Virus record (IMG/VR): IMGVR_UViG_3300035208_005614
Coordinates: 1 to 64,000 of that record
Origin: a virus
Taxonomy: Duplodnaviria; Heunggongvirae; Uroviricota; Caudoviricetes
Strand: one strand, 5' to 3'
Length of the DNA: 64,000 nucleotides
This document shows positions 5,152 to 63,783 of this stretch, one piece after another (the stretch's first letter is position 1; each line of letters begins with the position of its first letter). The notes under the pieces are model-generated. The model was not told the DNA's origin and searched no databases. It saw nothing but the letters and a program-made list of their open reading frames with translations. A program made the position numbers and the translations under genes.

Positions 5152-5430
5152 TTAAATAATAGCTATTACGTCAGATTCATTTACTAACAAATAACTTTTT
5201 CCTTCCAATTGTATCATAGTACCATACTGAAAAATTATGTTATCTCCAACTTTAACTTCCATGGACTGGATAATTCCATTATCCATCATTCTTCCATTTC
5301 CAGCATAGACAACTTTACCTTTAGAAAAATCACTTTGATCTGTTGTTTTTGAAATAACTAAACCACTTGCTGTCTTCTCTATCGCTTTGTCTGATTCCAC
5401 TATAACTCTTGCTCCTAATATTTTTATCAT
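5152..5430 (-). CDS. groES: Co-chaperonin GroES (Cpn10)
   Basis: 92 aa. IKILGARVIVE..EKTASGLVIS...GKVVYAGNG...VKVGDNIIFQYG...YLLVNESDVIAII matches the Cpn10 pattern along its full length. Confidence 0.85.
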   Translation of the reverse strand: MIKILGARVIVESDKAIEKTASGLVISKTTDQSDFSKGKVVYAGNGRMMDNGIIQSMEVKVGDNIIFQYGTMIQLEGKSYLLVNESDVIAII

Positions 5431-6896: not shown

Positions 6897-7769
6897 TTAA
6901 TAATGACCGACTTTCATTTTTATTGCTTGTAATTTTAACACTTCTTTTTTAAATTGTCCAAAGTTTTTAAAATATCGATAAAGATATCTTCCCTCATTCT
7001 CAGGCAATAACTTTTTAACTCTTAATTCTTTACCTTGCTCCAATCCTCTAAGACCAACTTCTATCAAATGCTCTCTCCATTCCTTTTTAGTCTTAAATTG
7101 AGGATTGTATGTAGAAAAATTTGGTTGCATCTTAAGATAATCTCTACAATATTTAATATAACTTCCATATCTATAATGCATTATTGTTATAATACCTCCC
7201 CCATATTCCTTTTTAATATCTGTAAGAGTAGGAGTTTTACCTAATTTTTTACCTAAACTAATTATTTTGGTCATGATTTGGAGATCACAAATACCATAAG
7301 CATTTTGTCCTTCCTTTGCTTTCTTTTTACCTTTTCTATTTCCTGCTTCTCTATTCTTCTTTTTAAAACCGTAACCATTACTATTTCCTAATTGCATTTT
7401 CCCTTCTTTTTGTAATTGAGTGATAACTTCTGATTGTCTTAATCTAAGTTTCTTTGATTTCAAAGCTGTCTGAGTAAACAAACCGAATTTTGCTCTATAT
7501 TGTTCTCCTGTCATTCCGTGCTTGACTGAAAAGTGTGTAGGTAGTTGTTCAAACCATTTACCACACTCATGACATTGCAATTTACCTGTCTCCGAATCTT
7601 CTGCAAGAACTCCAACAAAACCGAATCCTGTTGAGACTGGCATAAAAGGTGGTTCCCATTTTTTAATATTAATAAAACCTGACTCGGCTTGATCGTAAGC
7701 TATCTTATTCTGTTTTTTATGTGGATATACTGGCATGTTTTTTAATAATGAGTTAAGTCGAGGGGGCAA
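6897..7769 (-). CDS. Ros/MucR-family zinc-finger transcriptional regulator-like protein with a C-terminal extension
   Basis: KLQCHECGKWFEQLPTHFSVKHGMTGEQYRAKFGL closely matches the Ros/MucR CxxC...HxxxxH finger and the following EYRxKWGL motif. About 150 extra C-terminal residues are unassigned. Confidence 0.7.
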   Translation of the reverse strand: MPPRLNSLLKNMPVYPHKKQNKIAYDQAESGFINIKKWEPPFMPVSTGFGFVGVLAEDSETGKLQCHECGKWFEQLPTHFSVKHGMTGEQYRAKFGLFTQTALKSKKLRLRQSEVITQLQKEGKMQLGNSNGYGFKKKNREAGNRKGKKKAKEGQNAYGICDLQIMTKIISLGKKLGKTPTLTDIKKEYGGGIITIMHYRYGSYIKYCRDYLKMQPNFSTYNPQFKTKKEWREHLIEVGLRGLEQGKELRVKKLLPENEGRYLYRYFKNFGQFKKEVLKLQAIKMKVGHY

Positions 7770-8095: not shown

Positions 8096-9751
8096 TTACA
8101 TCATGTCGGGTTTATCTTTTGGTATTTCTGCCATAGCTACTTCTAGGGTTAGGAACATTCCTGCTCCACTAGAAGCATTTTCTAAGGCACATCTCTCTAC
8201 TTTCAATGGATCAATAATTCCACTTTCAATAAGATTATCAACAAAAACATTATTAAAGGCATCAAAACCGCCTCCATCTTCTTGATTTTTAACCTCATTT
8301 ACCACTTCCTCTCCATCTCCTAATCCACAGTTAATAGCAATGTGTTTTAAAGGTATCTCCATTGCTTTGGCAAGAATATCAAAACCTAGAAGCTCATCTA
8401 CCGTGTATTCACCCTCATTTTTGGCCTCTAAAACCCTCGTAGACGCATGAATTAATGAATATCCACCTCCTGGAACTATACCCTCCTCCAAAGCCGCTTT
8501 TACGGCATTTATAGCGTCTTCAACTTTTAGTTTAAGATACTTAGTTTCTGTGTCTGTTGAAGCTCCAACTTTGATTCTTGCAACACCACCAGAAAGTTTA
8601 GCAATTCTTTCCTCAACTTTAAGTTTGTCGTGCTTAGATTCGAGAGTTTCCATTTCTAATTTTGCGGTAGCAATACGCTCATCAATCTTAGTTTTATCTC
8701 CTTTCCCTCCGATAATTGTTGTCTTATCTTTTGTAGAAACAACTCTTTCGGCAGAACCTAGATGATCTAATCCCACTTTATCCATTGTCATACCTAAATC
8801 TTTTGATATAAATGTTGCACCAACTGTAATTGCTATATCTTCCAAATAATCTTTCTTTCTTAAACCGAATCCTGGAGCTTTAACTCCTAGAGTGATAAAT
8901 CCATTTTGGAATCTATTTGCAAGAACTGTTTGAAGAGCGTCTCCAACGATATCTTCAGCGATGATAACTAAATCTTGTTTCCCAGAGGCTTTTAATGCTT
9001 CCATGATCAAATAAACATCTTCAGCAGAACCGAGTTTCAAATCCGTAACTAAGATCGAAACATCTTTAACCACAGATTCTCCACGAGCTGGATCGGTCAT
9101 CATATATGGAGTTATAAAACCTTTATCTAATTCTAAACCTGAAGAAATTTCACTTGTAATTCCAACAACTGGACTTTCCTCCACTGTAATTATTGCATCT
9201 TGTCCTAATTCAGATACTGTCTTTGCAACAACTTTACCTATTTCTTCTGATTTCGAAGAAATGGTTGCAACACGAGTAATCTCTTCATTTCCATTTATTG
9301 GTTTAGAGATAGTTTTTAAGTAATCAACTGCAATCTTTGAAGCTTTATCTATACCAGATTTAACTCCAATAGAATTTACTTTTGCAGGTTTAAGAGAAAT
9401 CAATCTCAAAATCTTTGTCCATAAAGAACCTTTGATTAATTTCATTCCCTCAGTAGCAATAGCCTGATACAAAAGAATTGTGGTTTTTCTTCCATCTCCA
9501 GCGATATCATTTGTTTTTTGTGCTACTTCTTTTTCTAAATTTGCTCCAACATTCTGCATAGAATCTTTTAAAACAATCTCACGTGATATAGAACCGCCAT
9601 CTCCTGTTATTGTTGGTCCACCAAAACCACGATCAAAAACTACATTACGCCCCCTTGGACCTATTGCGGGTTTTATAGAATCACCAACTGCGTCTATACC
9701 GACTTTTAATTCCTTTCTTGCTTCCTCTCCAAATAAAATTCTTTTTGCCAT
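8096..9751 (-). CDS. groEL: Chaperonin GroEL (Cpn60)
   Basis: 551 aa. AKRILFGEEAR...GPRGRNVV..GDGTTT-like region...AVKAALEEGIVPGGG... The C-terminus ends in MM. Collinear with GroEL over its full length. Confidence 0.9.
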   Translation of the reverse strand: MAKRILFGEEARKELKVGIDAVGDSIKPAIGPRGRNVVFDRGFGGPTITGDGGSISREIVLKDSMQNVGANLEKEVAQKTNDIAGDGRKTTILLYQAIATEGMKLIKGSLWTKILRLISLKPAKVNSIGVKSGIDKASKIAVDYLKTISKPINGNEEITRVATISSKSEEIGKVVAKTVSELGQDAIITVEESPVVGITSEISSGLELDKGFITPYMMTDPARGESVVKDVSILVTDLKLGSAEDVYLIMEALKASGKQDLVIIAEDIVGDALQTVLANRFQNGFITLGVKAPGFGLRKKDYLEDIAITVGATFISKDLGMTMDKVGLDHLGSAERVVSTKDKTTIIGGKGDKTKIDERIATAKLEMETLESKHDKLKVEERIAKLSGGVARIKVGASTDTETKYLKLKVEDAINAVKAALEEGIVPGGGYSLIHASTRVLEAKNEGEYTVDELLGFDILAKAMEIPLKHIAINCGLGDGEEVVNEVKNQEDGGGFDAFNNVFVDNLIESGIIDPLKVERCALENASSGAGMFLTLEVAMAEIPKDKPDMM

Positions 9752-11672: not shown

Positions 11673-11700
11673 GATTATTTTTATTATTGATACTCTGTAA

Positions 11701-11728
11701 GTATACTCCTTTCTCCTTACTTGTCAAG
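11701..11728 (-). promoter_or_regulatory. Sigma-70-like promoter TTGACA-N16-TATACT (copy 2)
   Basis: Minus-strand reading cTTGACAagtaaggagaaaggagTATACTtac, between the Fic stop and the HTH gene start. Confidence 0.65.
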
Positions 11729-11734
11729 TAAGAT

Positions 11735-12292
11735 TTATCTAAACCATTTATAATAGTTCTTCTGTTCATCTCCCCCTTTATCATAATCAGCATGGATTAC
11801 TTCTATTGGAAGCCTATATTGAATGCGATGCCACAACATGATAAGTCTTCCAACACGACCATTTCCATCCTCAAAAGGATGAATATTTTCAAACTGAATA
11901 TGAGACGTTTTTACAACAGATTTAGGAGAAAGTGACTCATCTTGTGAATAAATTAATATATCTTTACAAAAATTTTCAAGATCATCATTTATCAATTGCC
12001 ATGAAATAAAGGGTTTAACGTGCCCCCCTATCCACACATCACAATTACGGTATCTTCCCGCTATATCTGGTCGAAGATCTTTCATTAGAATTTTATGAAT
12101 TTTAAGTATTTTATTAGGTGTTAAATATTTTTGATATTTTAAGTAATTCCATGCTTTTTTTGCCTGAATAAAAGGTTCTAATCCCTCAACTCTTTCAATT
12201 GAATTTGATTCTCTGATAAAATCATCTATATTTTTGTTTCTTGTTGCTCTCTTTTTTAACTTTTGTTTTTTCATATCATTAATTTTTTTCAC
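11735..12292 (-). CDS. Fic/Doc-family protein (AMPylation-type enzyme)
   Basis: Canonical Fic motif HPFEDGNGRVGR. Confidence 0.8.
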   Translation of the reverse strand: MKKINDMKKQKLKKRATRNKNIDDFIRESNSIERVEGLEPFIQAKKAWNYLKYQKYLTPNKILKIHKILMKDLRPDIAGRYRNCDVWIGGHVKPFISWQLINDDLENFCKDILIYSQDESLSPKSVVKTSHIQFENIHPFEDGNGRVGRLIMLWHRIQYRLPIEVIHADYDKGGDEQKNYYKWFR

Positions 12293-12632
12293 AAAATAAC
12301 TCTACTGTGATATTTTTATAAATTCCTATTGACATATTTGTATAATTAGGTTTTAGTATATTTGCTCGATGTGTTGGAGAATCCATAAGAGCTTTCTCCT
12401 CTGAAATAGCACTAGGATAATTCTTTGCTAGATTCTCCCCTATATAATCACAATCCAAATTAACAAATGAATTTTTCCATCCTAAATGAGACCACTGTCC
12501 TGTATCATACAAATACTTTGCTCTTACTCCTGCCATTTGTGCCATCTGTGGGTACGTCTGAAGAGGGGCTAAATTTGCTCTAGCTCTATCATTGTTTGTC
12601 AGCATAAATAATAAGAGTAATTGTGATATCAT
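12279..12632 (-). CDS. CAP/SCP/PR-1 (YkwD-like) domain protein
   Basis: GENLAKNYPSAISEEKALMDSPTHRANILKPNYTNMSIGI matches the CAP-domain C-terminal motifs (GEN..., W..S.GHR.NIL...IG). Hydrophobic N-terminus. Confidence 0.6.
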   Translation of the reverse strand: MISQLLLLFMLTNNDRARANLAPLQTYPQMAQMAGVRAKYLYDTGQWSHLGWKNSFVNLDCDYIGENLAKNYPSAISEEKALMDSPTHRANILKPNYTNMSIGIYKNITVELFCEKN

Positions 12633-12931
12633 TTTATTAGTTTTTTATAATCCCTAATACAAATTGGTAGGTGGTCATTCTTTCTTTTACTTAAAAAGTC
12701 TAAAGAATATTCATAATACTCAAACATTTGCTTTCTTGAGTATTTATAACGAACAAAATCTACCATATCTGTCATATTAAAGAAATAATCATTAATATGA
12801 TAAACTCCTCCAACTTCATTTGCTACCCACCAACGTTCATTATCTTTGCCGAAGTATTTTATTGCAAAATACACAGCAAAATCATTTGTATACCACTCCC
12901 AATTCTCTAAAAATTGATTAATTTTTTTCAT
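12629..12931 (-). CDS. Hypothetical protein
   Basis: 100-aa ORF overlapping both neighbours by 4 nt (ATGA-type coupling). Confidence 0.4.
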   Translation of the reverse strand: MKKINQFLENWEWYTNDFAVYFAIKYFGKDNERWWVANEVGGVYHINDYFFNMTDMVDFVRYKYSRKQMFEYYEYSLDFLSKRKNDHLPICIRDYKKLIK

Positions 12932-13290
12932 TTTGTTTTTACAATTAGATTTTTATCCGCCATTCCAAAAGAAACTTCATCGTCAAAAGCAATATCGACT
13001 TGACCGTGAATAGTGTCATCATATTCGGCTTTTCCAAAACACTGATCTACCCACTTTTCTAAGCCAAATTTTAACACTATTTGCTCTGCGTATTCCTTAC
13101 CACCACCACTCCAAACATAGATCTTGCAATTTTTAATATGTTCATGAAGCAATTCCATAAGTTGAACTGTTCTCAAGTTCAATACTGGTTCAGCTTTATA
13201 CATGAATGGTGATCCATATATTGTTCCGTCTACGTCAAACGAGATGATAATTTCTTTCATATTTTTATCTCCTACCGTAATAGTAGGCAA
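12928..13290 (-). CDS. HAD-superfamily phosphatase-like protein
   Basis: ISFDVDGTI matches HAD motif I (DxDGT). Confidence 0.5.
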   Translation of the reverse strand: MPTITVGDKNMKEIIISFDVDGTIYGSPFMYKAEPVLNLRTVQLMELLHEHIKNCKIYVWSGGGKEYAEQIVLKFGLEKWVDQCFGKAEYDDTIHGQVDIAFDDEVSFGMADKNLIVKTK

Positions 13291-13513
13291 TTAAATTTTG
13301 TAATTTTAACTTTTTCGACTTTTCTTCTTTTTCTGTGGAATCCTCCACAACTGCTGTCTCCCATTCTTCTTTAGAATAATAACTAACGGGTTGCATTTGT
13401 GGACGTGCCATTTGTACCTGGGAGGCTAGAATGGTTCTTTCCCAATCTTTTATGCGGTTCTCCCTTATACGCATCTCCTCCTGATAACTATTCGTATAAG
13501 CCATGAGAGTCAT
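13265..13513 (-). CDS. Hypothetical protein
   Basis: 82-aa ORF in the operon string. Confidence 0.35.
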   Translation of the reverse strand: MTLMAYTNSYQEEMRIRENRIKDWERTILASQVQMARPQMQPVSYYSKEEWETAVVEDSTEKEEKSKKLKLQNLIAYYYGRR

Positions 13514-13514
13514 G

Positions 13515-13934
13515 TTATTTAACTATATGAACGGTATTCTTCCCGACTAGACCATCAACTAACTTATTTAGAATATCCTTCATGTCTTTAACATCAAAAC
13601 CTAGATTTTCGAAAGCTTTGGTCAAGATTTCTGCTTCTTTTGTTTTGTTATTTAGATTCATCTTCAACTCAGCATTTTCTTTAGTCAAAACCTTTGTTGC
13701 TTCTGCTACTTTATTTTCCAATTCTAAATCTTTTCTAGTAACAATAATCTCATTATCTTTAGCGAGATTATCTGCTTTTTTCTCCAATCCTTCAATCTCT
13801 TCTCTATGAATCTTACCTTGTCTTTCTATTTTTTCTTCATACTCCTTAACTATTTGTCCTTCTCTTTCCTTGCTCTTATTTGCATCTGCTTTTTCAAGCA
13901 AATCATTATATGTTTTATCTGATAAAAATTTCAT
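13515..13934 (-). CDS. Hypothetical coiled-coil protein
   Basis: 139 aa, K/E-rich heptad-like. The antisense ORF 13582-13809 is low-complexity. Confidence 0.4.
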   Translation of the reverse strand: MKFLSDKTYNDLLEKADANKSKEREGQIVKEYEEKIERQGKIHREEIEGLEKKADNLAKDNEIIVTRKDLELENKVAEATKVLTKENAELKMNLNNKTKEAEILTKAFENLGFDVKDMKDILNKLVDGLVGKNTVHIVK

Positions 13935-13935
13935 T

Positions 13936-14250
13936 TTATTGGTATCTTGCGATACATTCCTGTATCATTTTACTCTTATAATTTTCGTCTTCGCACTGTT
14001 TTTTTGCCTCAGTATTTGTGATCGATCCACAAATATCTGAATCTTTTCCTGTATCAACCACAGGTTCATCTGGTTCTGGAATATATGCTACTGCGGTCTG
14101 ATTAAATCCACTAACTTTGGTTGATGTAGTAGTCGAATTTGCTTTATTTTTTGCTCTAGCACTTTCAATACTCGCCATCACTACTGATGAAAAAATACCT
14201 ATAATTGCTATTACAACCAACATTTCTATTAACGTAAAACCTTTTTTCAT
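13936..14250 (-). CDS. Type IV pilin-like protein (prepilin N-terminal cleavage/methylation domain)
   Basis: N-terminus MKKGFTLIEMLVVIAIIGIFSSVV is the class-III signal (G|FTLIE) followed by a hydrophobic helix. Confidence 0.7.
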   Translation of the reverse strand: MKKGFTLIEMLVVIAIIGIFSSVVMASIESARAKNKANSTTTSTKVSGFNQTAVAYIPEPDEPVVDTGKDSDICGSITNTEAKKQCEDENYKSKMIQECIARYQ

Positions 14251-14251
14251 T

Positions 14252-14512
14252 TTATTTTTTTATATACCACGCTTTTAATCTAGGTAGATTATCTAAGACC
14301 AACCTTATCTGCTCCTTAGTAATCTTGCCTTGTCCTATCCCGTCTTGTAAAAGAACTACGATAGCTCTTTGAGTTAATTGAGACTTCTGAAGTTTTTCGA
14401 ATCCTTCAGAAACTGAAATTATGCTTTGAGCTAAAAGTTCTATCGACTCGGGATTCTCTTCATTCTTGACTACTCTAATATTTTGTTTTCCCATATTATT
14501 TTGTCTCTTCAA
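14252..14512 (-). CDS. Hypothetical protein
   Basis: 86-aa ORF tightly packed between neighbours. Confidence 0.4.
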   Translation of the reverse strand: MKRQNNMGKQNIRVVKNEENPESIELLAQSIISVSEGFEKLQKSQLTQRAIVVLLQDGIGQGKITKEQIRLVLDNLPRLKAWYIKK

Positions 14513-14646
14513 TTGCTAAAAGAATCTTTTCTGCCACAGCACTAAGAAGAATTCCATCATGTGCCTTATTTGGAACACAGAATTCTCTTAAAACCGCTAT
14601 TATTTTTTCTTTTTTTTCTTCATTCATAATTTTAATTTATTAATTA

Positions 14647-15159
14647 TTAATCTCCCCACGAACCTGAATCACTACTTGAATAACTATCGCTACCCCATGA
14701 TCCTGAATCACTTCCCCAAGATCCTGAATCGCTACTTGAATAGCTATCGCTACCCCATGATCCTGAATCACTACCCCACGAAGTATCGTCTACTGCACTA
14801 CTTTCGTCTCCCCAACTTCCCCAAAAACTATCGTTTGACTTACTTCCACTTCCCCAAGATCCAGAATTACTATCTGAATTACTTGTTGTTTGACTAGGAG
14901 CAGAATCACGATAGGTAGTATTATTGTAATAAGTATTACCTCTTGATCCTCCAAAAAGCCACATCCAGAAAAACGGTTCATACGAGTTGTTCTGCGGTTG
15001 CGATTGAACAACGACATTTGTCGTTGTTCCTGCAACTGTAGTGGAAGAAACATTCTTAGCCGCCTTAAACATCGGAACGAAAGCTAGTACAAGAAATATT
15101 GCGACTAGAATAGAACCGATAACTAAGATTGCCTGTAAATTTTTATGTCTTTCCCACAT
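14647..15159 (-). CDS. Membrane-anchored protein with a Ser/Gly/Trp/Asp-rich repeat tail
   Basis: N-terminal TM segment (ILVIGSILVAIFLVLAFVP). C-terminal SGSWGSDS repeats are encoded by a 57-bp tandem DNA repeat at about 14650-14790. Confidence 0.55.
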   Translation of the reverse strand: MWERHKNLQAILVIGSILVAIFLVLAFVPMFKAAKNVSSTTVAGTTTNVVVQSQPQNNSYEPFFWMWLFGGSRGNTYYNNTTYRDSAPSQTTSNSDSNSGSWGSGSKSNDSFWGSWGDESSAVDDTSWGSDSGSWGSDSYSSSDSGSWGSDSGSWGSDSYSSSDSGSWGD

Positions 15160-15163
15160 ATAA

Positions 15164-16081
15164 TTATTTTAATTGGATTACTGGAATCGTGTTTCCTCCC
15201 ATCATCGTTGATGGATAATGTCCGTCCCATTGCTTGATTGCTTGTAATGCTACGTAATCAGCTCCTCCTTGTGAGTTTATAGCTTGTGCTGAAATTCTTA
15301 TCGCTTCTGCATCTGCTTTTGCTTTTTCTACTGTTTGCTGTGCTTCATATTGAACTTGAACTAATTTGTTCTTTTGAGCTTCAGCGTCTTGAACTGCTGT
15401 AACTTTAGCTTCAATTGATTTGCTAAATGCATCTGAGAAAGCAAAGTTTGTAACTGAGAATCTTTCCATAACTGCATTCTTTTCAACAAATTGTGTTGCA
15501 AGTAAAGCATTTACTTTGTCTGAGAATTCTGCTCTTTTTGTAACCAATTCTTCTGCTGTGTATTGAGCTGATGTAGATTTAACTATTTCTCTAATCATCG
15601 GTTCAATAACATTTGCTTGATAATTCTCTACTGAACTATATTGAGAGAATATTTCTGTTACTTTTGTTGCATCTACGTGATAATTTACAACTACTCCAAT
15701 TGCTACATCCTGAAGATCTTTTGATGCTCCAAAAAGATTTGTAGATTGATTTTTCTCATCTCCTGTATCTCCGCTCTTATCGTAATCAATTGTTTGAGTC
15801 TTAACGCTCATCAAATGAATTGATTCTAACCATGGGAGTTTGAAATAAAGTCCTGGTTGAACTGTACCTACTACCTTACCTAGATTTGTTTTAACTCCTA
15901 CTTCTCCAGCACTAACTGTACCAAATGATCCGAAGATTGTTGGTAATGCGATAAATAAAGTAATAAAAGCAATTGCTATATGTGTAATAACTTTTGCTAG
16001 ATCTACTTCAGTACCGTAATCTGTTTTCATTGAATAATCGAACATTCCTCTTTTTTTATTTTCCATTTTTATATTTTTCAT
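15164..16081 (-). CDS. SPFH/band-7 (prohibitin/HflKC-like) domain membrane protein
   Basis: N-terminal TM (IAIAFITLFIALPTIF) followed by GEVGVKTNLGKVVGTVQPGLYFKLPW, a band-7-like core, then a long A/Q/E-rich coiled-coil tail. Confidence 0.7.
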   Translation of the reverse strand: MKNIKMENKKRGMFDYSMKTDYGTEVDLAKVITHIAIAFITLFIALPTIFGSFGTVSAGEVGVKTNLGKVVGTVQPGLYFKLPWLESIHLMSVKTQTIDYDKSGDTGDEKNQSTNLFGASKDLQDVAIGVVVNYHVDATKVTEIFSQYSSVENYQANVIEPMIREIVKSTSAQYTAEELVTKRAEFSDKVNALLATQFVEKNAVMERFSVTNFAFSDAFSKSIEAKVTAVQDAEAQKNKLVQVQYEAQQTVEKAKADAEAIRISAQAINSQGGADYVALQAIKQWDGHYPSTMMGGNTIPVIQLK

Positions 16082-16093
16082 TATTATTAACTT

Positions 16094-16312
16094 TTAAACA
16101 ACTATACTCTTTTTTAAATCCTCTAAATCTGACAAAAGACTAACAAGTCTTCCTTCAAGGGTTGTTCTTGTTGGTAAGGGACCGTTGAGAGTCGCACTTT
16201 TTGATGGACTACTCTCAATAATAAAATTAGCCTTATCTCTTATTTCAAACACTTTCTTTGAACAATCGTCTATTATTTGTAAATAGACATTACTGTTTAC
16301 TTTTTCTTCCAT
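16094..16312 (-). CDS. Hypothetical protein
   Basis: 72-aa ORF, first gene downstream of the 16368 leftward promoter. Confidence 0.4.
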   Translation of the reverse strand: MEEKVNSNVYLQIIDDCSKKVFEIRDKANFIIESSPSKSATLNGPLPTRTTLEGRLVSLLSDLEDLKKSIVV

Positions 16313-16367: not shown

Positions 16368-16395
16368 AGTATACTCCTTTCAAAATACTTGTCAA
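16368..16395 (-). promoter_or_regulatory. Sigma-70-like promoter TTGACA-N16-TATACT (copy 3, leftward)
   Basis: Minus-strand reading cTTGACAagtattttgaaaggagTATACTtgg, in the divergent region. Confidence 0.65.
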
Positions 16396-16467: not shown

Positions 16468-16743
16468 ATGGATAAAATCTTTAGCACACGTGATCTTTAC
16501 TTAGCGGCGACTCTAGTTAGCCTTAAATTCTATCTAACAGGAATTGACTACCAAATAGAGGGAGAAAAAAACCTACCTATAGGTTATTTTAAGTTTGAAG
16601 ACACAAAAGAGATACAAGAAGCCAAATCTAAATACACCCAAGGATTATTGATGGTTGAACCTAAATCGTTCATCACTAATTTAAAAAGTTTAAAAAGCGA
16701 GATAGTTAATATTTATAAAAATCCTCATAATTTTGGTAAGTAA
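16468..16743 (+). CDS. Hypothetical protein
   Basis: 91-aa ORF, first gene of the rightward block. Confidence 0.45.
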   Translation: MDKIFSTRDLYLAATLVSLKFYLTGIDYQIEGEKNLPIGYFKFEDTKEIQEAKSKYTQGLLMVEPKSFITNLKSLKSEIVNIYKNPHNFGK

Positions 16744-61584: not shown

Positions 61585-61656
61585 CATAGTACTAGCTCTT
61601 CGAGTAGGATTCGGACCTACGATCTATCGCTTAACAGGCGATGGCTTTACCACTAA
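61585..61656 (-). tRNA. tRNA-Asn (anticodon GUU)
   Basis: Hand-folded cloverleaf: acceptor TCTTCGA/TCGAAGA, D GCTT/AAGC, anticodon stem ATCGC/GCGAT with loop CUGUUAA, T-arm GTAGG-TCCGAAT-CCTAC. Coordinates within about 2 nt. Confidence 0.75.
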
Positions 61657-61661
61657 GCTAT

Positions 61662-61732
61662 CGAAGAATATGCTGGGGAAGATGGAATCGAACCACCATT
61701 AATCGCTTCAGAGGCGATCTTACTACCTTTAT
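61662..61732 (-). tRNA. tRNA-Gln (anticodon CUG)
   Basis: Acceptor TGGGGAA/TTCCCCA, anticodon stem ATCGC/GCGAT with loop CUCUGAA, T-arm GGTGG-TTCGATT-CCATC. Confidence 0.7.
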
Positions 61733-61750
61733 AAGATTCCCCAATTTGTA

Positions 61751-61822
61751 CTTTCTAACTGCTGGGGATCTTGGGTTCGAACCAAGCTACACGGCTTCAA
61801 GGGCCGTTGAACTACCAACTAT
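61751..61822 (-). tRNA. tRNA-Gln (anticodon UUG)
   Basis: Acceptor TGGGGAT/ATCCCCA, D GAAT/GTTC, anticodon stem ACGGC/GCCGT with loop CCUUGAA, T-arm CTTGG-TTCGAAC-CCAAG. Confidence 0.8.
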
Positions 61823-61835
61823 TCTAATCCCCAAT

Positions 61836-62198
61836 TTACCATTTTTTACCTTTTTTTCTAGCAGTTAATCTCCACTTTTTTCTAACCTCATTATAAGCAT
61901 TCATACAAAGTCTACATCTACATTTATGATGTCTATACATTGAATACATTCCATGTTTTGATTCCCCGTTATCAATCTTATTCTTTTCTTTGTGACATAT
62001 ATGACAAAGTAATTGACACTTAGAAACTTCTAATAAAACTTTTTGTATAGAATAAGACCATTTTTCTGTTATGGTAAATTTTTTTGTTTTAGGATCAATA
62101 TGATCAAACTCTAATCCTTCTTTACTTCCACAAACAACACATTTTCCTCCTAATAATTCTATTAATAAACTAATTCTTTTTTTATAATGTCTTATCAT
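61836..62198 (-). CDS. HNH endonuclease embedded in the tRNA array
   Basis: CVVCGSKEGLEFDHIDPKTKKF...LLCHICHKEKN is a canonical HNH pattern (C..C...DHI.P.....N..LC..CH..K). Confidence 0.6.
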   Translation of the reverse strand: MIRHYKKRISLLIELLGGKCVVCGSKEGLEFDHIDPKTKKFTITEKWSYSIQKVLLEVSKCQLLCHICHKEKNKIDNGESKHGMYSMYRHHKCRCRLCMNAYNEVRKKWRLTARKKGKKW

Positions 62199-62313
62199 TA
62201 GTATATCCTACCATAATACTTTAAAATGTCCTACCCTGCGGGCCGAGAAGGACTTGCACCCTCATTTTCCGCTTTGGAGACGGAAGTGTTTCTATTACAC
62301 TATCAACCCAATG

Positions 62314-62386
62314 GGTAACTATTGGGAATTGAACCCAACCTAAGAGTTTCACAAACTCCTGTGCGAACCGATACACTACAGTCACC
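62314..62386 (-). tRNA. tRNA-His (anticodon GUG) with an encoded G-1
   Basis: Extra 5' G opposite the C73 discriminator, acceptor GTGACTG/TAGTTAC (two G-U pairs), anticodon loop UUGUGAA, T-arm TTGGG-TTCAATT-CCCAA. Confidence 0.75.
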
Positions 62387-62389
62387 ATG

Positions 62390-62473
62390 TGCGTAAAAGA
62401 GGACTCGAACCTCTAACTCCTTTCGAAGACAACATTTTAAGTGTTGCGCGTATACCACTTCCGCCATTCACGC
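62390..62473 (-). tRNA. tRNA-Leu (anticodon UAA), class II
   Basis: Acceptor GCGTGAA/TTTACGC, anticodon stem CAACA/TGTTG with loop CUUAAAA, long variable arm of about 16 nt, T-arm AGAGG-TTCGAGT-CCTCT. Confidence 0.8.
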
Positions 62474-62477
62474 ATTG

Positions 62478-62551
62478 TGCACGAAAGAGGACTCGAACCT
62501 CTAGATCTTGGTTTTTGAAACCAATACGTTTACCAATTTCGTCATTCGTGC
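62478..62551 (-). tRNA. Atypical tRNA with anticodon CAA: Leu-like acceptor and T-arm but only a 5-nt variable loop
   Basis: Acceptor GCACGAA/TTCGTGC and T-arm AGAGG-TTCGAGT-CCTCT are shared with the two tRNA-Leu genes. Anticodon stem TTGGT/ACCAA with loop UUCAAAA. The variable region is only GATCT. Confidence 0.55.
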
Positions 62552-62555
62552 CCTG

Positions 62556-62626
62556 AGCCTCTCGTTAGAATCGGACTAACGTCTAAAGTTTACAAAACTA
62601 TCGTTCTACCATTGAACTAGAAAGGC
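62556..62626 (-). tRNA. tRNA-Thr (anticodon UGU), tentative
   Basis: Acceptor GCCTTTC/GAGAGGC (one G-U), D GTTC/GAAC, anticodon loop UUUGUAA on a stem with one mismatch, T-arm GTTAG-TCCGATT-CTAAC (unusual C55). Confidence 0.55.
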
Positions 62627-62670
62627 TTAATGTGACCGTCATCGACAAGAAACCGACACTACGTCACATG

Positions 62671-62754
62671 TGCACAAAAAGGGACTCGAACCCCCACCCC
62701 CTTTCGGAGATCAGTTTCTAAGACTGATGCGTATACCAATTCCGCCATTCGTGC
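62671..62754 (-). tRNA. tRNA-Leu (anticodon UAG), class II
   Basis: Acceptor GCACGAA/TTTGTGC, anticodon stem TCAGT/ACTGA with loop CUUAGAA, variable arm of about 15 nt, T-arm GGGGG-TTCGAGT-CCCTT. Confidence 0.8.
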
Positions 62755-62848
62755 AGAGTTCCACAATTAATTGCTAAGTTAATTAGCCTATCAAGTACCT
62801 TAAAAAAGGTACAGTGGAACTATATTGTCCAATCCGAAGATTGGAGTG

Positions 62849-62919
62849 TGCCATGAGATGGAATCGAACCACCGTGTCCTGTGCTTCAAACAGGAGTTTT
62901 ACCATTAAACTATCAGGGC
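62849..62919 (-). tRNA. tRNA-Phe (anticodon GAA)
   Basis: Acceptor GCCCTGA/TCATGGC (one C-U mismatch at 4:69), D GTTT/AAAC, anticodon stem CCTGT/ACAGG with loop UUGAAGC, T-arm GGTGG-TTCGATT-CCATC. Confidence 0.65.
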
Positions 62920-63104
62920 TATAATTCACTATAACATCCCTACTCTTGTTAAATGGCTCTGACGAGCTCCAGGGTTTTATATTTATAGTGGTGGCATCCG
63001 AGCCCCCGCTTACGCGGTGACTTGGCAAATTCGAAATTGGAACTTTTACTTTCAGCCACTTATCCAACTTCTAGAGAACCTAGTAACAAGACGGTTCCCT
63101 TGTG

Positions 63105-63176
63105 AGCATCGAGCTGGAATCGAACCAGCGCATGATAGTTTTGCAAACTATCGTCTTACCACTTGACTACCGATGC
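63105..63176 (-). tRNA. tRNA-Cys (anticodon GCA)
   Basis: Acceptor GCATCGG/TCGATGC, anticodon stem ATAGT/ACTAT with loop UUGCAAA, T-arm GCTGG-TTCGATT-CCAGC, discriminator U. Confidence 0.75.
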
Positions 63177-63180
63177 TTGG

Positions 63181-63261
63181 TGCATGTAGTTGGAATCGAA
63201 CCAACAGTGCCCGCGGGCGAAGGTTTTACAGACCCCTAGAATTCCACTATCTGATACATGC
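63181..63261 (-). tRNA. tRNA-Tyr (anticodon GUA), class II
   Basis: Acceptor GCATGTA/TACATGC, anticodon loop CUGUAAA, variable arm containing the GCCCGCGGGC hairpin, T-arm GTTGG-TTCGATT-CCAAC. Confidence 0.7.
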
Positions 63262-63262
63262 G

Positions 63263-63334
63263 TAGCAGGTAGGAGAATCGAACTCCTTTGAAGAGGTTAT
63301 GGGCCTCCCGACTTAACCATCCGTCTCACCTGCG
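63263..63334 (-). tRNA. tRNA-Met (anticodon CAU; elongator, initiator or Ile2-type not resolved)
   Basis: Anticodon stem GGAGG/CCTCT with loop CCCAUAA (C33), T-arm AGGAG-TTCGATT-CTCCT, acceptor CGCAGGT/ACCTGCT with a C1:U72 mismatch. Confidence 0.6.
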
Positions 63335-63350
63335 ATAAACTATTCAATTG

Positions 63351-63421
63351 TCAGAGAACTAGGGATCGAACCTAGGCCGTATGTTTCCAGAACACAAATG
63401 CTTCCGCTACACCATACTCTG
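63351..63421 (-). tRNA. tRNA-Pro (anticodon UGG), tentative
   Basis: Acceptor CAGAGTA/TTCTCTG (one mismatch), anticodon stem TGTGT/ACATA with loop UCUGGAA (C33), T-arm CTAGG-TTCGATC-CCTAG. Confidence 0.55.
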
Positions 63422-63432
63422 ATAAAGAACTG

Positions 63433-63507
63433 AGGGCAAGGCTGGTATCGCACCAGCTTCATTTCGGGGTATTAGCACGACGCTCTACTCTTAGTCGCTA
63501 CCTGCCC
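63433..63507 (-). pseudogene. Aberrant tRNA-like element (possible tRNA pseudogene)
   Basis: A good acceptor-like closing helix (GGGCAGG/CTTGCCC) and a T-arm-like hairpin GCTGG-TGCGATA-CCAGC, but no consistent D or anticodon arms could be drawn. Confidence 0.3.
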
Positions 63508-63712
63508 TTATTTTAACTTAATATTTGATGGAATGTCAAAATCTTTTCTATCTATCCTTCTCAAAAAGGCTCTTATATTCCTATGAGGTTTATAATTCCA
63601 TCCTTTCTGTTTGTATTTATTTATATCTTTATTTTTCATTACGCTATTGCAGAACATAATAGGTTGGATGGTCCGTAGCGAGCGGAGTCCATTAGTTTCA
63701 TTCTGCTACCTG

Positions 63713-63783
63713 CGGGACTAGCGGGAATCGAACCCGCACTTAATGTTAGACAAACAATAGTTCTGCCACTAAACTATAGTCCC
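63713..63783 (-). tRNA. tRNA-Asp (anticodon GUC)
   Basis: Acceptor GGGACTA/TAGTCCC (perfect), D GTTT/GAAC, anticodon loop UUGUCUA, T-arm GCGGG-TTCGATT-CCCGC, discriminator G. Confidence 0.75.

Follow-up and report, generated by a model that had tools for sequence, protein, structure and literature searches.

A mosaic early accessory block in a probable Patescibacteria phage, with an SPFH and headless prepilin gene pair that may remodel host pili

Why a phage should carry, in one leftward run of genes, a Fic enzyme, a CAP-domain protein, a small phosphatase, a pilin-like protein, a low-complexity membrane protein and an SPFH scaffold, and whether these genes form one system, are the questions raised by this locus. 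Our favoured reading, to which we assign a probability of roughly 0.55, is that of a mosaic early accessory block of a probable Patescibacteria phage, at the core of which an SPFH–headless prepilin module serves in pilus remodelling. That the window (the whole stretch of 64,000 nucleotides analysed here) belongs to a phage is supported by an SU10 adaptor domain, an array of 15 tRNAs and a phage-type replication and recombination set within it, and by its relatives in IMG/VR. The longest contig encoding an identical pilin protein measures 101 kb, and the genome is of roughly 100 kb. The hosts are probably ultra-small CPR/Patescibacteria bacteria, an assignment that draws on similarity and on the type of sample: among cellular SPFH genes, the closest (57-70% identity) sit beside housekeeping-type genes on genome contigs of Patescibacteria that reach 179-189 kb, and the source samples are from landfill or groundwater, a 0.1-µm filter fraction included.

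Inspection of the open reading frames gives 12 minus-strand genes at 16312-11735, one more than the 11 of the first-pass annotation, and gene callers predict the same set on public contigs with 100% DNA identity (Table 1). From g72 through to the Fic gene the intergenic distances are 12, 4, 19, -17, 1, 1, 1, 4, -4, -4 and -14 nt, so that the tight packing with 4-nt overlaps described earlier (there are two) holds good. The promoter placed earlier at 16368 coincides with one of two promoter-like sites, in a divergent intergenic region opposite DUF5659 and replication genes. This site is a consensus match only; promoter-like matches in the region total 25 against 25.8 expected by chance, and what is notable is only the 11/12 quality of three sites. 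A terminator was looked for at the left boundary and none was found there; together with the second promoter-like site, upstream of further same-strand genes, this indicates that the left boundary is not the end of an operon. Beyond it come the MerR-like gene, an SNF2 helicase, GroEL and others, and MerR (as first gene), SNF2 and GroEL make up a conserved backbone, with MerR adjoining SNF2 in the related loci L001, L037, L038 and L041. The block is most likely the promoter-proximal, variable accessory part of a leftward early transcription unit in a large phage, and its non-structural content agrees with the earlier view that these genes are not needed for virion production.

Table 1. The leftward block and its edges in order of transcription (columns: feature, position, strand, basis or remark)
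Promoter-like site, TTGACA-16 nt-TATACT	16395-16368	minus	11/12 consensus matches; 5' of the block's first gene
g72, 72 aa, no TM, no family match	16094..16312	minus	gene call on identical contigs L004, L005
SPFH/Band-7 (prohibitin-like) membrane protein, 305 aa	15164..16081	minus	Band_7 7.7e-32; phrog_200 7.8e-50
SW170, single-pass membrane protein, (SGSWGSD)n low-complexity tail	14647..15159	minus	TM residues 5-37
g43, 43 aa, no family match	14496..14627	minus	ORF list; gene call on public contigs
g86 (80 aa in public-contig calls)	14252..14512	minus	ORF list; gene call on public contigs
Prepilin, predicted headless, 104 aa	13936..14250	minus	N_methyl 1.6e-8; TIGR02532 8e-10; phrog_3433 'pilin'
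cc139, coiled-coil protein, 139 aa	13515..13934	minus	C-terminal 40 residues strongly conserved
g82, 82 aa	13265..13513	minus	L038 homologue after cc139, same C-terminal ...NLIAYYY(G/R)(R/K)R
Capless (C0) HAD-superfamily phosphatase, 110 aa	12928..13260	minus	motifs and fold
g100, 100 aa	12629..12931	minus	phrog_35741
CAP/SCP-domain protein, YkwD type, 117 aa	12279..12632	minus	PF00188 6.9e-8; phrog_16914
Small Fic-domain protein, 179-185 aa	11735..12292	minus	PF02661 3.2e-15
Second promoter-like site, TTGACA-16 nt-TATACT	11700..11727	minus	62-nt gap after Fic; left edge of block
MerR-type HTH protein, 71 aa	11457..11672	minus	PF13411 4.5e-5

SPFH genes from phage-like contigs form 65 informative clusters at 97% identity; in 19 of these a prepilin gene lies 5-220 bp downstream of SPFH, on the same strand, with four additional cases at about 220-750 bp. 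These linked prepilins are 47-143 aa long, fall in at least five separate SPFH clades and have phage-type genes as neighbours; moreover, of 22 ORFs with a prepilin motif in the sampled loci as a whole, 21 occupy the position just 3' of SPFH. None of 11 Patescibacteria genome (MAG) contigs carrying the closest cellular SPFH has the pair. It does occur in culturable phages, namely T4-like phages of Aeromonas: in 44RR2.8t, ORF097c, a prepilin of 72 aa, comes after the Band_7 gene ORF098c, and a pair of this type is kept in about 32 records (44RR2.8t, 31, 25 and others), being intact in phage 25. About two thirds of the related phage SPFH genes have no prepilin next to them, as is also the case in all of 12 diverse cultured phages with SPFH, such that SPFH must be able to work without one; in the window itself, three small genes part the two. 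SPFH and a truncated pilin constitute a gene pair that recurs and that has apparently gone undescribed: pilin mimics of phages and truncated forms of PilA are known, and it is their linkage to SPFH that appears to be new. The first-pass annotation did not single out this pair, which is better supported than the pairing of SPFH with the Ser/Trp-repeat protein that it proposed.

The pilin-like product opens with a class III signal (MKKG/FTLIEM, the slash marking the cleavage point) and the pilin alpha-1 helix; a disordered linker then leads to a small helical hairpin at the C-terminus, which contains Cys. Its AF2 model, which was built on an alignment of 6 sequences and is of low confidence overall (pLDDT 57.6), places helices at 7-37 and 80-103, falls under a pLDDT of 50 at 37-71, contains no strands, and predicts a pilin reduced to the N-terminal helix and a short tail; the earlier prepilin-type assignment therefore stands, with the qualification that no globular head is predicted. 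Gly-1, Phe+1 and Glu+5 of pilins matter for peptidase processing and for filament packing. Across 20 SPFH-linked homologues, often just 47-60 aa long, G-1, F1, T2, L3 and E5 are invariant and the remainder averages 29% column identity, whilst the N-terminus of the window's pilin shares 62-79% identity, along the helix, with full-length pilins of the protein database. Locus L010 shares its source metagenome with L006, a locus identical to the window; L010 itself shows 100% identity to the window from SPFH to g86 and then 63-72% exactly over the pilin gene. Genomes that co-occur and are otherwise identical thus differ sharply at the pilin gene, a hotspot of diversity, and we count this restricted divergence as support, in that it resembles the signature of an arms race.

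The other partner, a membrane scaffold with an SPFH domain as first annotated, carries a single TM segment near its N-terminus (residues 26-58), and its nearest solved structures are prohibitin (2e-15) and, weakly, HflC; the Lys/Arg-rich N-terminus predicts that the SPFH domain lies outside the cytoplasm. Swarming in P. aeruginosa requires type IV pili plus flagella. Deletion of all nine SPFH genes in strain PA14 left swimming and swarming (the two motilities assayed) unchanged, so that known biology offers no link between SPFH proteins and pili.

Drawing these observations together, we propose a model in which the SPFH–prepilin pair is the oldest and most widely conserved element of the block, its prohibitin-like scaffold gene having been captured from the host lineage, and its headless prepilin having retained only the parts for membrane insertion, prepilin-peptidase processing and filament-core packing. 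Both proteins would be early products that insert into the cytoplasmic membrane in such a way that their soluble parts face outwards. The mini-pilin, once processed by the host prepilin peptidase, might then compete, at the platform where type IV pili are assembled, with the pilins of the host, acting either as a filament subunit without a receptor surface or as a poison of assembly, such that the infected cell would no longer offer pili to further phages; in an episymbiotic CPR host, attachment could change too. We also speculate, and this is the least supported step, that the SPFH protein may shield or organise the area of membrane where the mini-pilin acts, by analogy with HflK/C and prohibitin cages. 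Early remodelling of the membrane or of type IV pili for superinfection exclusion is, we infer, the most likely function, and the earlier suggestion of a pilin mimic serving this end is a reasonable one, with experimental precedent in a prophage FimU that blocks pilus-tip phages; truncated 60-aa PilA genes have likewise been noted in virulent Pseudomonas phages (PMC12952977).

Might the pair be functional without touching pili at all? The class III signal could merely anchor and orient a small SPFH partner, as a functional stand-in for NfeD or for the small membrane proteins that partner cellular SPFH, with a role in membrane stabilisation, in lysis timing or, as for HflK/C, in modulating the host FtsH protease. 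The closest solved SPFH relatives, prohibitin and HflC, do cage AAA proteases, one SPFH from a metagenomic phage carries the annotation 'lysogenization K protein', and family profile searches find no NfeD-type partner here; besides, the neighbour of SPFH in many cultured phages is a small TM protein other than a prepilin, and next after the pair comes a DUF1190 lipoprotein in the Aeromonas phages and another low-complexity membrane protein here. A mere anchor, however, would not need Glu+5, Phe+1 and Gly-1, which are invariant in 20/20 linked mini-pilins from two bacterial phyla, and variation concentrated in the exposed part of the pilin is more in keeping with recognition by some external partner than with a housekeeping role as a scaffold; we regard this reading as unlikely. 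Still less probable is that SPFH and prepilin are uncoupled, host-derived passengers co-inherited in one permissive early-region slot. The region is indeed a hotspot of gene gain and loss, most phage SPFH genes lack the prepilin, and L003 and Aeromonas phage Aeh1 have both genes apart, but the same order and strand are held down to about 50% SPFH identity in at least five clades amid otherwise unrelated neighbours, the pair arose or persisted independently in the Aeromonas phages, and the prepilin ORFs are almost confined to the one position. We give very little credence to a gain of function, whereby the phage pilin would join working pili or build its own filament to the benefit of phage or lysogen (for example by altering CPR cell-partner attachment), somewhat as the archaeal provirus SNJ2 does with its own pilins. 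Virus-encoded pilins can assemble into dominant surface filaments (PMC12426801), and PMC11623550 describes Saccharibacteria episymbiosis as mediated by type IV pili; however, forms of 47-60 aa cannot supply a surface domain, the 104-aa form has no predicted head, and no integrase was detected among the scanned proteins, which are part of the window's ORFs.

It is also highly improbable that all 12 genes form one interdependent system for envelope and signalling manipulation, as first proposed, even though they make up a tight unit flanked by two promoter-like sites, with translational coupling at its junctions, and L038 keeps seven of the 12 in order (SPFH-pilin-cc139-g82-HAD-g100-Fic). The check for co-occurrence in related phages, suggested with that proposal, finds the full set in no relative and only subsets in phage populations: SPFH-HAD-Fic in L037, SPFH-minipilin-HAD-g100 in L042, and SPFH-pilin alone in L001, where g100 is at another place. 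Genes for SAM synthetase, SAH hydrolase, HNH, RNA ligase-like and kinase proteins, all unrelated, are inserted between the shared genes in relatives, and CAP, SW170, g43, g86 and g72 (the last without a tblastn match in related loci) occur, among related loci, only in the window phage's own near-identical copies. Tight packing, for its part, is the norm throughout this genome. The block is a mosaic whose genes can be exchanged independently of one another and do not form a single machine; of the envelope module, the three membrane proteins stand and the single co-inherited system does not.

The sequences of Fic, HAD and CAP carry no membrane or export signal, and the three most likely act separately on cytoplasmic targets. 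The Fic protein, recognised as such from the outset, has the canonical active-site motif HPFEDGNGRVGR at residue 138 and an inhibitory-helix-like SNSIER at its N-terminus, and would on this basis be an AMPylase-type enzyme with the inhibitory glutamate retained. Its nearest solved structures are C. difficile Fic (4x2c) and FICD, and it further matches PADLOC SoFic (2e-20) and TIGR02613 'mobile mystery protein B' (1.6e-9). Homologues sit at the equivalent position in L037 and L038; the latter has a degenerate motif, HPFEDFNGRTFR, so that catalysis is perhaps not conserved. The CAP domain is clear, with a match to TIGR02909 (YkwD family) at 2e-17, under that model's cutoff, but it begins at about residue 9 (9-11) and no hydrophobic segment is present (maximum Kyte-Doolittle 0.48); there is therefore no signal peptide, and the secretion initially suggested is unsupported. 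The phosphatase call fell under every threshold in the sequence libraries searched and was borne out only by motif and fold: with the true start at the ATG at 13260, all four motifs (DxDGT, S51, K77 and D93-D94) are shared without exception by 24 homologues, the homologous clusters, of which there are at least 151, are nearly all of 105-117 aa, and the AF2 model (pLDDT 89.3) finds TIM50/FCP1-like proteins, the T4 Pnkp 3'-phosphatase and KDN-9-P phosphatase as top Foldseek matches, its best PDB neighbours being capless HAD phosphatases.

Amongst the smaller genes, homologues of g100 are found in L001, L038, L042 and L043, and those of cc139 lie directly 3' of the pilin in L038 (52% identity) and next to SPFH in L097. 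SW170 is the Ser/Trp-repeat membrane protein that the first reading described; in its gene, positions 14653-14782 are tandemly repeated with periods of 21 and 60 nt, and the protein has no family in Pfam, PHROG or PADLOC. A weak local match around PFFWMWLFGG (pairwise E 5e-5) connects it to Ser/Gly/Tyr-rich proteins in L037 and L042, which are encoded two genes upstream of SPFH.

The accessory block holds 12 ORFs on the minus strand, one more than was counted in the first-pass annotation, and gene callers return the same genes on three public contigs (L004, L005 and L006) whose DNA is 100% identical to this stretch of the window. From 5' to 3' the order is g72, SPFH, SW170 (a single-pass membrane protein), g43, g86, prepilin, cc139 (a coiled-coil protein), g82, HAD, g100, CAP and Fic, where small ORFs are named by length; the junctions measure 12, 4, 19, -17, 1, 1, 1, 4, -4, -4 and -14 nt. 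A near-consensus, promoter-like TTGACA-16-TATACT sits ahead of the block, just where an early promoter had been placed from the sequence alone, and a second site of the same form lies within the 62-nt gap after Fic. With these two sites, and with no terminator-like site found inside the block, it is a plausible transcription unit; promoter-like matches across the region number 25 against 25.8 expected, i.e. chance level, such that only the quality of these few sites is notable. Beyond Fic, genes continue on the same strand (a MerR-type gene, an SNF2 helicase, GroEL, GroES, an epimerase and an exonuclease), so what marks the left boundary is a promoter; the operon does not end there. Divergent from the block is a gene for a DUF5659 protein; no other small gene is as well conserved in this group of phages (71-90% identity across ten loci or more), and the DUF5659 gene is always found at the divergent promoter region beside replication genes.

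Together, these tightly packed genes had been taken to look like a single envelope and signalling module, a reading in which all 12 genes would act as one system. Every block gene was looked for in each of ~100 loci gathered around homologues of SPFH, and the comparative data contradict this. Relatives share only subsets, in the same order: SPFH, pilin, cc139, g82, HAD, g100, Fic, MerR and SNF2 in a 74-kb contig (L038); SPFH, HAD and Fic in L037; SPFH, a 50-aa pilin, HAD and g100 in L042; and, in a further contig of 74 kb (L001), SPFH and pilin, followed by SAH hydrolase, SAM synthetase and other genes before the MerR-SNF2-GroEL backbone. In L038 the shared genes are interspersed with ~10 unrelated insertions, and five genes (CAP, SW170, g43, g86 and g72) occur, among the ~100 loci, only in near-identical copies of the same phage. 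On this comparison of gene content and order, the block is a syntenic, highly plastic early accessory region, and not one co-inherited system. The possibility that it constitutes a known defence system was also rejected, as PADLOC matched Fic alone (to the SoFic and PDC-S04 models) and returned nothing for SPFH, the pilin or the other block proteins.

Within this plastic region, the SPFH gene and the prepilin form a recurrent pair. After collapsing SPFH sequences at 97% identity, a prepilin-like ORF lies 3' of SPFH on the same strand, usually at a distance of 5-220 bp, in 19 of 65 informative clusters; moreover, those loci contain 22 ORFs with the prepilin motif in all, and 21 of them occupy exactly the position after SPFH. 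On a rough SPFH tree the linked cases are spread over at least five clades, with unlinked and cellular SPFH proteins interspersed, and the genes beside them are of phage type (Mom-like, exonuclease, dCTP deaminase, NinG, YopX and amidase); the arrangement was seen in none of 11 Patescibacteria genome contigs. One relative with SPFH (L003) has a 70-aa prepilin ~8 kb away from that gene, directly upstream of which is a TM protein of 77 aa with a Ser-rich tail (1715-1927 and 9201-9434), so the components can be present yet unlinked. Every block gene comes from a known family, and phage pilin mimics, truncated forms included, are already in the literature; the linkage itself we did not find described in the literature searched, and the papers searched on phages of Patescibacteria (CPR) mention neither pilins nor SPFH as phage genes.

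The pair also occurs in T4-like phages of Aeromonas. In phage 44RR2.8t, 53 bp separate ORF098c (Band_7) from the next gene, ORF097c, whose 72-aa product starts MKGFTLIEL; both Pfam matches appear, uncommented, in a table from 2006 (PMC1524935). The pair is conserved in ~32 phage records, being intact in phage 25 at ~80% DNA identity and present in phages 31, Aes508, phiAS4, Aes012 and IME13. As in the window, SPFH comes before the prepilin (72-75 aa and ~55 bp downstream in the Aeromonas phages), the location is an early or non-structural region, and a membrane protein or lipoprotein with a Ser/Gly-rich tail comes next; the SPFH proteins, however, are very divergent, and the third Aeromonas gene is a DUF1190 member. 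This gene, ORF096c of 44RR2.8t (L116, 9385-9993), codes for a lipoprotein of DUF1190 (YgiB/YjfM type; 1.9e-21) whose tail is rich in Ser, Gly and Phe, and a YgiC/YjfC-like glutathionylspermidine-synthase homologue lies three genes beyond it. We considered whether SW170 might be its DUF1190 counterpart and rejected this, as SW170 has no Pfam match and the tails are alike in composition only. A pilin partner is absent for most phage SPFH genes: of the cultured phages, 12 of diverse origin (Klebsiella, Cronobacter, Erwinia, Vibrio, Caulobacter, Rhizobium, Stenotrophomonas, Pseudomonas, Fusobacterium and a spring metagenome phage) had no prepilin beside SPFH, although a small TM protein is often adjacent.

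The identification of a type IV pilin-like protein stands as regards its class III signal (MKKG/FTLIE), with 34.2 bits to pilin N_methyl (cut-off 21.2) and 38.1 to TIGR02532 (cut-off 16.3), and fails as regards a head domain. The AF2 model, which is of low confidence, has a long N-terminal helix at 7-37, then a linker that is disordered and finally a small helical hairpin at the C-terminus; it contains no strand and hence no sheet. Similarity to full-length database pilins (62-79% identity) is confined to the N-terminal helix. Many SPFH-linked mini-pilins comprise only 47-60 aa, which is too short for a head domain. Across 20 of them Gly-1, Phe+1, Thr+2, Leu+3 and Glu+5 are invariant, among them the residues for peptidase processing and filament packing, the rest averaging 29% column identity. 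As the window carries no prepilin peptidase or assembly gene, host machinery would be needed. A tblastn search of the pilin against GenBank phages gave no match, which its short length and the low-complexity filter probably explain, and a query with the N-terminus of P. aeruginosa PilA returned only three irrelevant records.

A comparison of two contigs from one metagenome (JGI 3300037067) reveals a hotspot of variation at the pilin gene. From SPFH up to and including g86, L010 and the window are 100% identical; DNA identity is then 63-72% exactly over the pilin gene (1857-2174 of L010 against 13951-14250 of the window), the differences being mostly in the linker, and 87-95% afterwards. As L006, from the same metagenome, is identical to the window, two phage variants co-occur there. 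This is the pattern that would be expected for a surface-exposed or recognised protein under diversifying selection or allele exchange.

Phage-borne type IV pilus components are known to be used against other phages: the function of P-FimU, from F10-like Pseudomonas prophages, has been demonstrated, and truncated PilA genes covering the N-terminal ~60 residues have been noted in virulent Pseudomonas phages (Sztanko et al., Cell Rep 2026, PMC12952977). Like these P-FimU/P-PilA-type mimics, the window pilin is a phage-encoded homologue of a pilus subunit and reproduces the conserved N-terminal region of a host pilin; it resembles the truncated form in having no exposed head. The common proposal is that such a protein enters the pilus or blocks its assembly, and the high diversity of the exposed part would fit phage-versus-phage competition. 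In contrast, SPFH linkage is not mentioned in that work, the host here is probably a CPR bacterium, and P-FimU is a full-size minor pilin of demonstrated function, whereas that of the mini-pilin is a proposed one.

The partner gene is, as annotated, an SPFH membrane protein (Band_7, 111.2 bits against a cut-off of 23.6) with a single N-terminal TM segment at 26-58. Its closest solved structure is prohibitin, and a membrane-anchored SPFH domain with a C-terminal helical region is common to it and to HflK/HflC-FtsH, prohibitin-AAA protease cages and SPFH-NfeD operons, the systems that supply the closest solved structures; encoding beside a small membrane partner is likewise usual in both. It is not, however, a member of the HflK/HflC equivalog families (22-28 bits, far under cut-offs of 134-660), and it lacks a second SPFH paralogue; among its neighbours neither an NfeD-type partner nor an AAA or other protease gene was found. 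Of phage proteins, those of phrog_200 share the domain and the single N-terminal anchor: 391 phage records match the window SPFH, under annotations as varied as ‘lipoprotein’, ‘prohibitin family protein’ and ‘band-7-like membrane protein’. Unlike these, the window SPFH is prepilin-paired and much nearer to cellular SPFH proteins (57-70% identity, the closest all on Patescibacteria genome contigs) than to those of cultured phages (at most 36%).

The Ser/Trp-repeat membrane protein, SW170, was also correctly described; it is single-pass, and its tail is encoded by a 21/60-nt tandem repeat. Two genes upstream of SPFH, L037 (5310-5825) and L042 (5296-5805) encode a signal-peptide protein of ~170 aa, rich in Ser, Gly and Tyr, whose FFFWYWIFG shares a short aromatic motif with FFWMWLFGG of SW170, such that a low-complexity membrane partner may be recurrent. 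No informative family match was obtained for the six block ORFs other than Fic, CAP, HAD, the pilin, SPFH and SW170.

As the boldest synthesis of these observations, we propose a tentative model, to which we would assign a probability of about 0.3: that SPFH and headless prepilin, often with a membrane protein bearing a Ser/Gly-rich aromatic tail, make up a dedicated phage module, distributed from CPR phages to Aeromonas T4-like phages, in which an SPFH cage forms a membrane compartment to capture the pilin pool or the assembly platform and the phage-made pilin stub shuts down or re-tips type IV pili within the infected cell. More likely is a mechanism in which the two proteins would be co-expressed early and inserted in the membrane with their soluble parts on the outer face, an orientation suggested by the Lys/Arg-rich N-terminus of SPFH and by the N-in topology of pilins. 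Host prepilin peptidase would then process the mini-pilin, which might compete with host pilins such that the infected cell no longer displays usable pili; this step parallels both what has been proposed for the truncated PilA of virulent Pseudomonas phages and what prophage FimU has been demonstrated to do. SPFH, on the analogy of the cages formed by HflK/C and prohibitin, could serve to fence off a patch of membrane. Its role is the weakest link of the mechanism: most phage SPFH genes have no pilin partner, and deletion of all nine SPFH genes in P. aeruginosa PA14 left swimming and swarming unchanged, swarming being dependent on type IV pili and flagella.

Other readings of the pair must be set against this. 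The two proteins could instead affect membrane integrity, FtsH or the timing of lysis, in which case the class III signal would serve only for anchoring; such a role leaves the invariant Glu+5 and the hotspot over the pilin gene unexplained. That SPFH and prepilin are simply hitch-hiking together is hard to square with the positional specificity of the prepilin and with the independent Aeromonas case. A gain-of-function pilus, of the kind described for the archaeal provirus SNJ2, is unlikely for headless forms.

Were the pilus-directed module borne out, it would provide a first function for the widespread phage SPFH genes, as well as a mechanism for truncated phage pilins, which have only been noted in passing and their role guessed; the conserved physical linkage joins these two questions. 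Because the pair is present in T4-like phages of the culturable A. salmonicida and A. hydrophila, it is testable at the bench without CPR culture. In CPR bacteria, type IV pili are considered to have a central part in both attachment and the uptake of DNA, and a phage module aimed at them would therefore offer a direct handle on interactions between phage, host and partner, in a field where experiments are scarce.

That the window derives from a phage is clear from a phage-type replication initiator, a helicase loader, a primase-helicase, UvsX/RecA, SbcCD and an SU10 adaptor domain, along with two giant ORFs and a 15-tRNA array (see table); relatives are present in IMG/VR, and the longest contig carrying the identical pilin protein measures 101 kb. 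Against GenBank phages, the DNA of the whole block gave a single 59-bp match at chance level. Similarity of SPFH to Patescibacteria proteins and of the pilin helix to full-length database pilins, together with the source samples, which include landfill and the 0.1-um fraction of groundwater, makes a CPR host likely though not proven. Some of the Patescibacteria SPFH contigs are 179-189 kb long or have tRNA-synthetase-like neighbours (the synthetase being called by eye), and for these we rejected the explanation that the homologues lie on mis-binned phage contigs; mis-binning is possible for short contigs such as L021. Both chaperonin subunits are phage-encoded, and GroEL is kept beside the SNF2 helicase in relatives. 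Several large ORFs neighbouring the giant ORFs have no PHROG or Pfam match.

Coordinates of the accessory block and of other features in the window
Feature	Position (nt)	Strand	Remarks
Accessory block, 12 ORFs	16312-11735	minus	
Promoter-like site ahead of block	16395-16368		TTGACA-16-TATACT
Promoter-like site after Fic	11727-11700		same form
DUF5659 gene	16468-16743	plus	divergent from block
HAD gene	12928-13260	minus	true start, ATG at 13260
GroES	~5152-5430		mapped from L004; Cpn10 Pfam match on identical contig
ROS/MucR-type zinc-finger regulator domain	6897-7769	minus	domain recorded on identical contig; no PHROG match
GroEL	8096-9751		phrog_5725, 1.4e-114; Cpn60 Pfam match on identical contig
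Giant ORF, 2390 aa	31653-38825	minus	presumed structural region
Giant ORF, 2680 aa	52468-60510	minus	presumed structural region
15 tRNA genes	61595-63783	minus	Asn, Gln x2, Trp, His, Leu x3, Thr, Phe, Cys, Tyr, Met, Ser, Asp; right end of window

Relative to the SPFH-prepilin pair, Fic, HAD and CAP are ordinary accessory genes; their products carry neither a membrane nor an export signal, and probably work separately, on targets in the cytoplasm. The call of a Fic enzyme is borne out by PF02661 (57.2 bits, cut-off 24) and by HPFEDGNGRVGR at residue 138, which agrees with the canonical active-site motif of AMPylating Fic proteins, HxFx(D/E)GNGRxxR (in Doc, K replaces the second G). Compared with the inhibitory (S/T)xxxE(G/N), its SNSIER at residue 29 retains Ser and Glu and ends in R. 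The Fic homologue of the closest pilin-bearing relative, L038 (10697-11218), has a degenerate active site, HPFEDFNGRTFR (G to F and G to F), despite which the inhibitory-like SNAIE is kept (SNAIEQ in full); catalysis may thus not be conserved across the lineage. The fold and the active-site motif are shared with class II Fic AMP-transferases (C. difficile Fic, SoFic and FICD) and ‘mobile mystery protein B’, and the N-terminal SxxxE resembles their inhibitory helix; the window Fic is, however, much shorter (~180 aa, core only), with R in place of G or N as the last residue of that motif. A partner HTH gene of the ‘mystery protein A’ type was not seen, and no relative was confirmed when IMG/VR was scanned with Fic peptide patterns. 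Proteins of the CAP/SCP/YkwD family are typically extracytoplasmic, and the block CAP protein had been described as secreted; it does contain a CAP domain of YkwD type (33.8 bits, cut-off 21.1), with secretion unsupported, as the match to the domain starts as early as residue 9-11 and the protein has no hydrophobic segment, and thus no signal peptide.

The HAD phosphatase is real by motifs and fold, though it falls below every sequence-library threshold (NIF, 17.5 against 21.8; Hydrolase, 14.5 against 26.4; HAD-IIIC, 15 against 35.75). All four catalytic motifs (DxDx[TV]; S/T; K/R; DD or ED) are present, with D9, D11, T13, S51, K77, D93 and D94 invariant in 24 sequences. A search of the PDB with the sequence alone was uninformative, so that a fold search was needed: the AF2 model (pLDDT 89.3) adopts a Rossmann-like HAD core fold, and its top Foldseek matches in the PDB include TIM50/FCP1-like proteins, T4 Pnkp 3'-phosphatase and KDN-9-P phosphatase, at a probability of 0.98-1.0 and an E-value of only ~3e-3, some of the nearest solved folds being capless HAD phosphatases. 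The capless protein of 110 aa belongs to a large family (proteins P0014-P0133; at least 151 clusters, mostly on phage-sized contigs) with homologues of 105-117 aa; between phages with 45-70% identity in their other genes it retains 75-85%, which is unusually strong conservation for an accessory gene.
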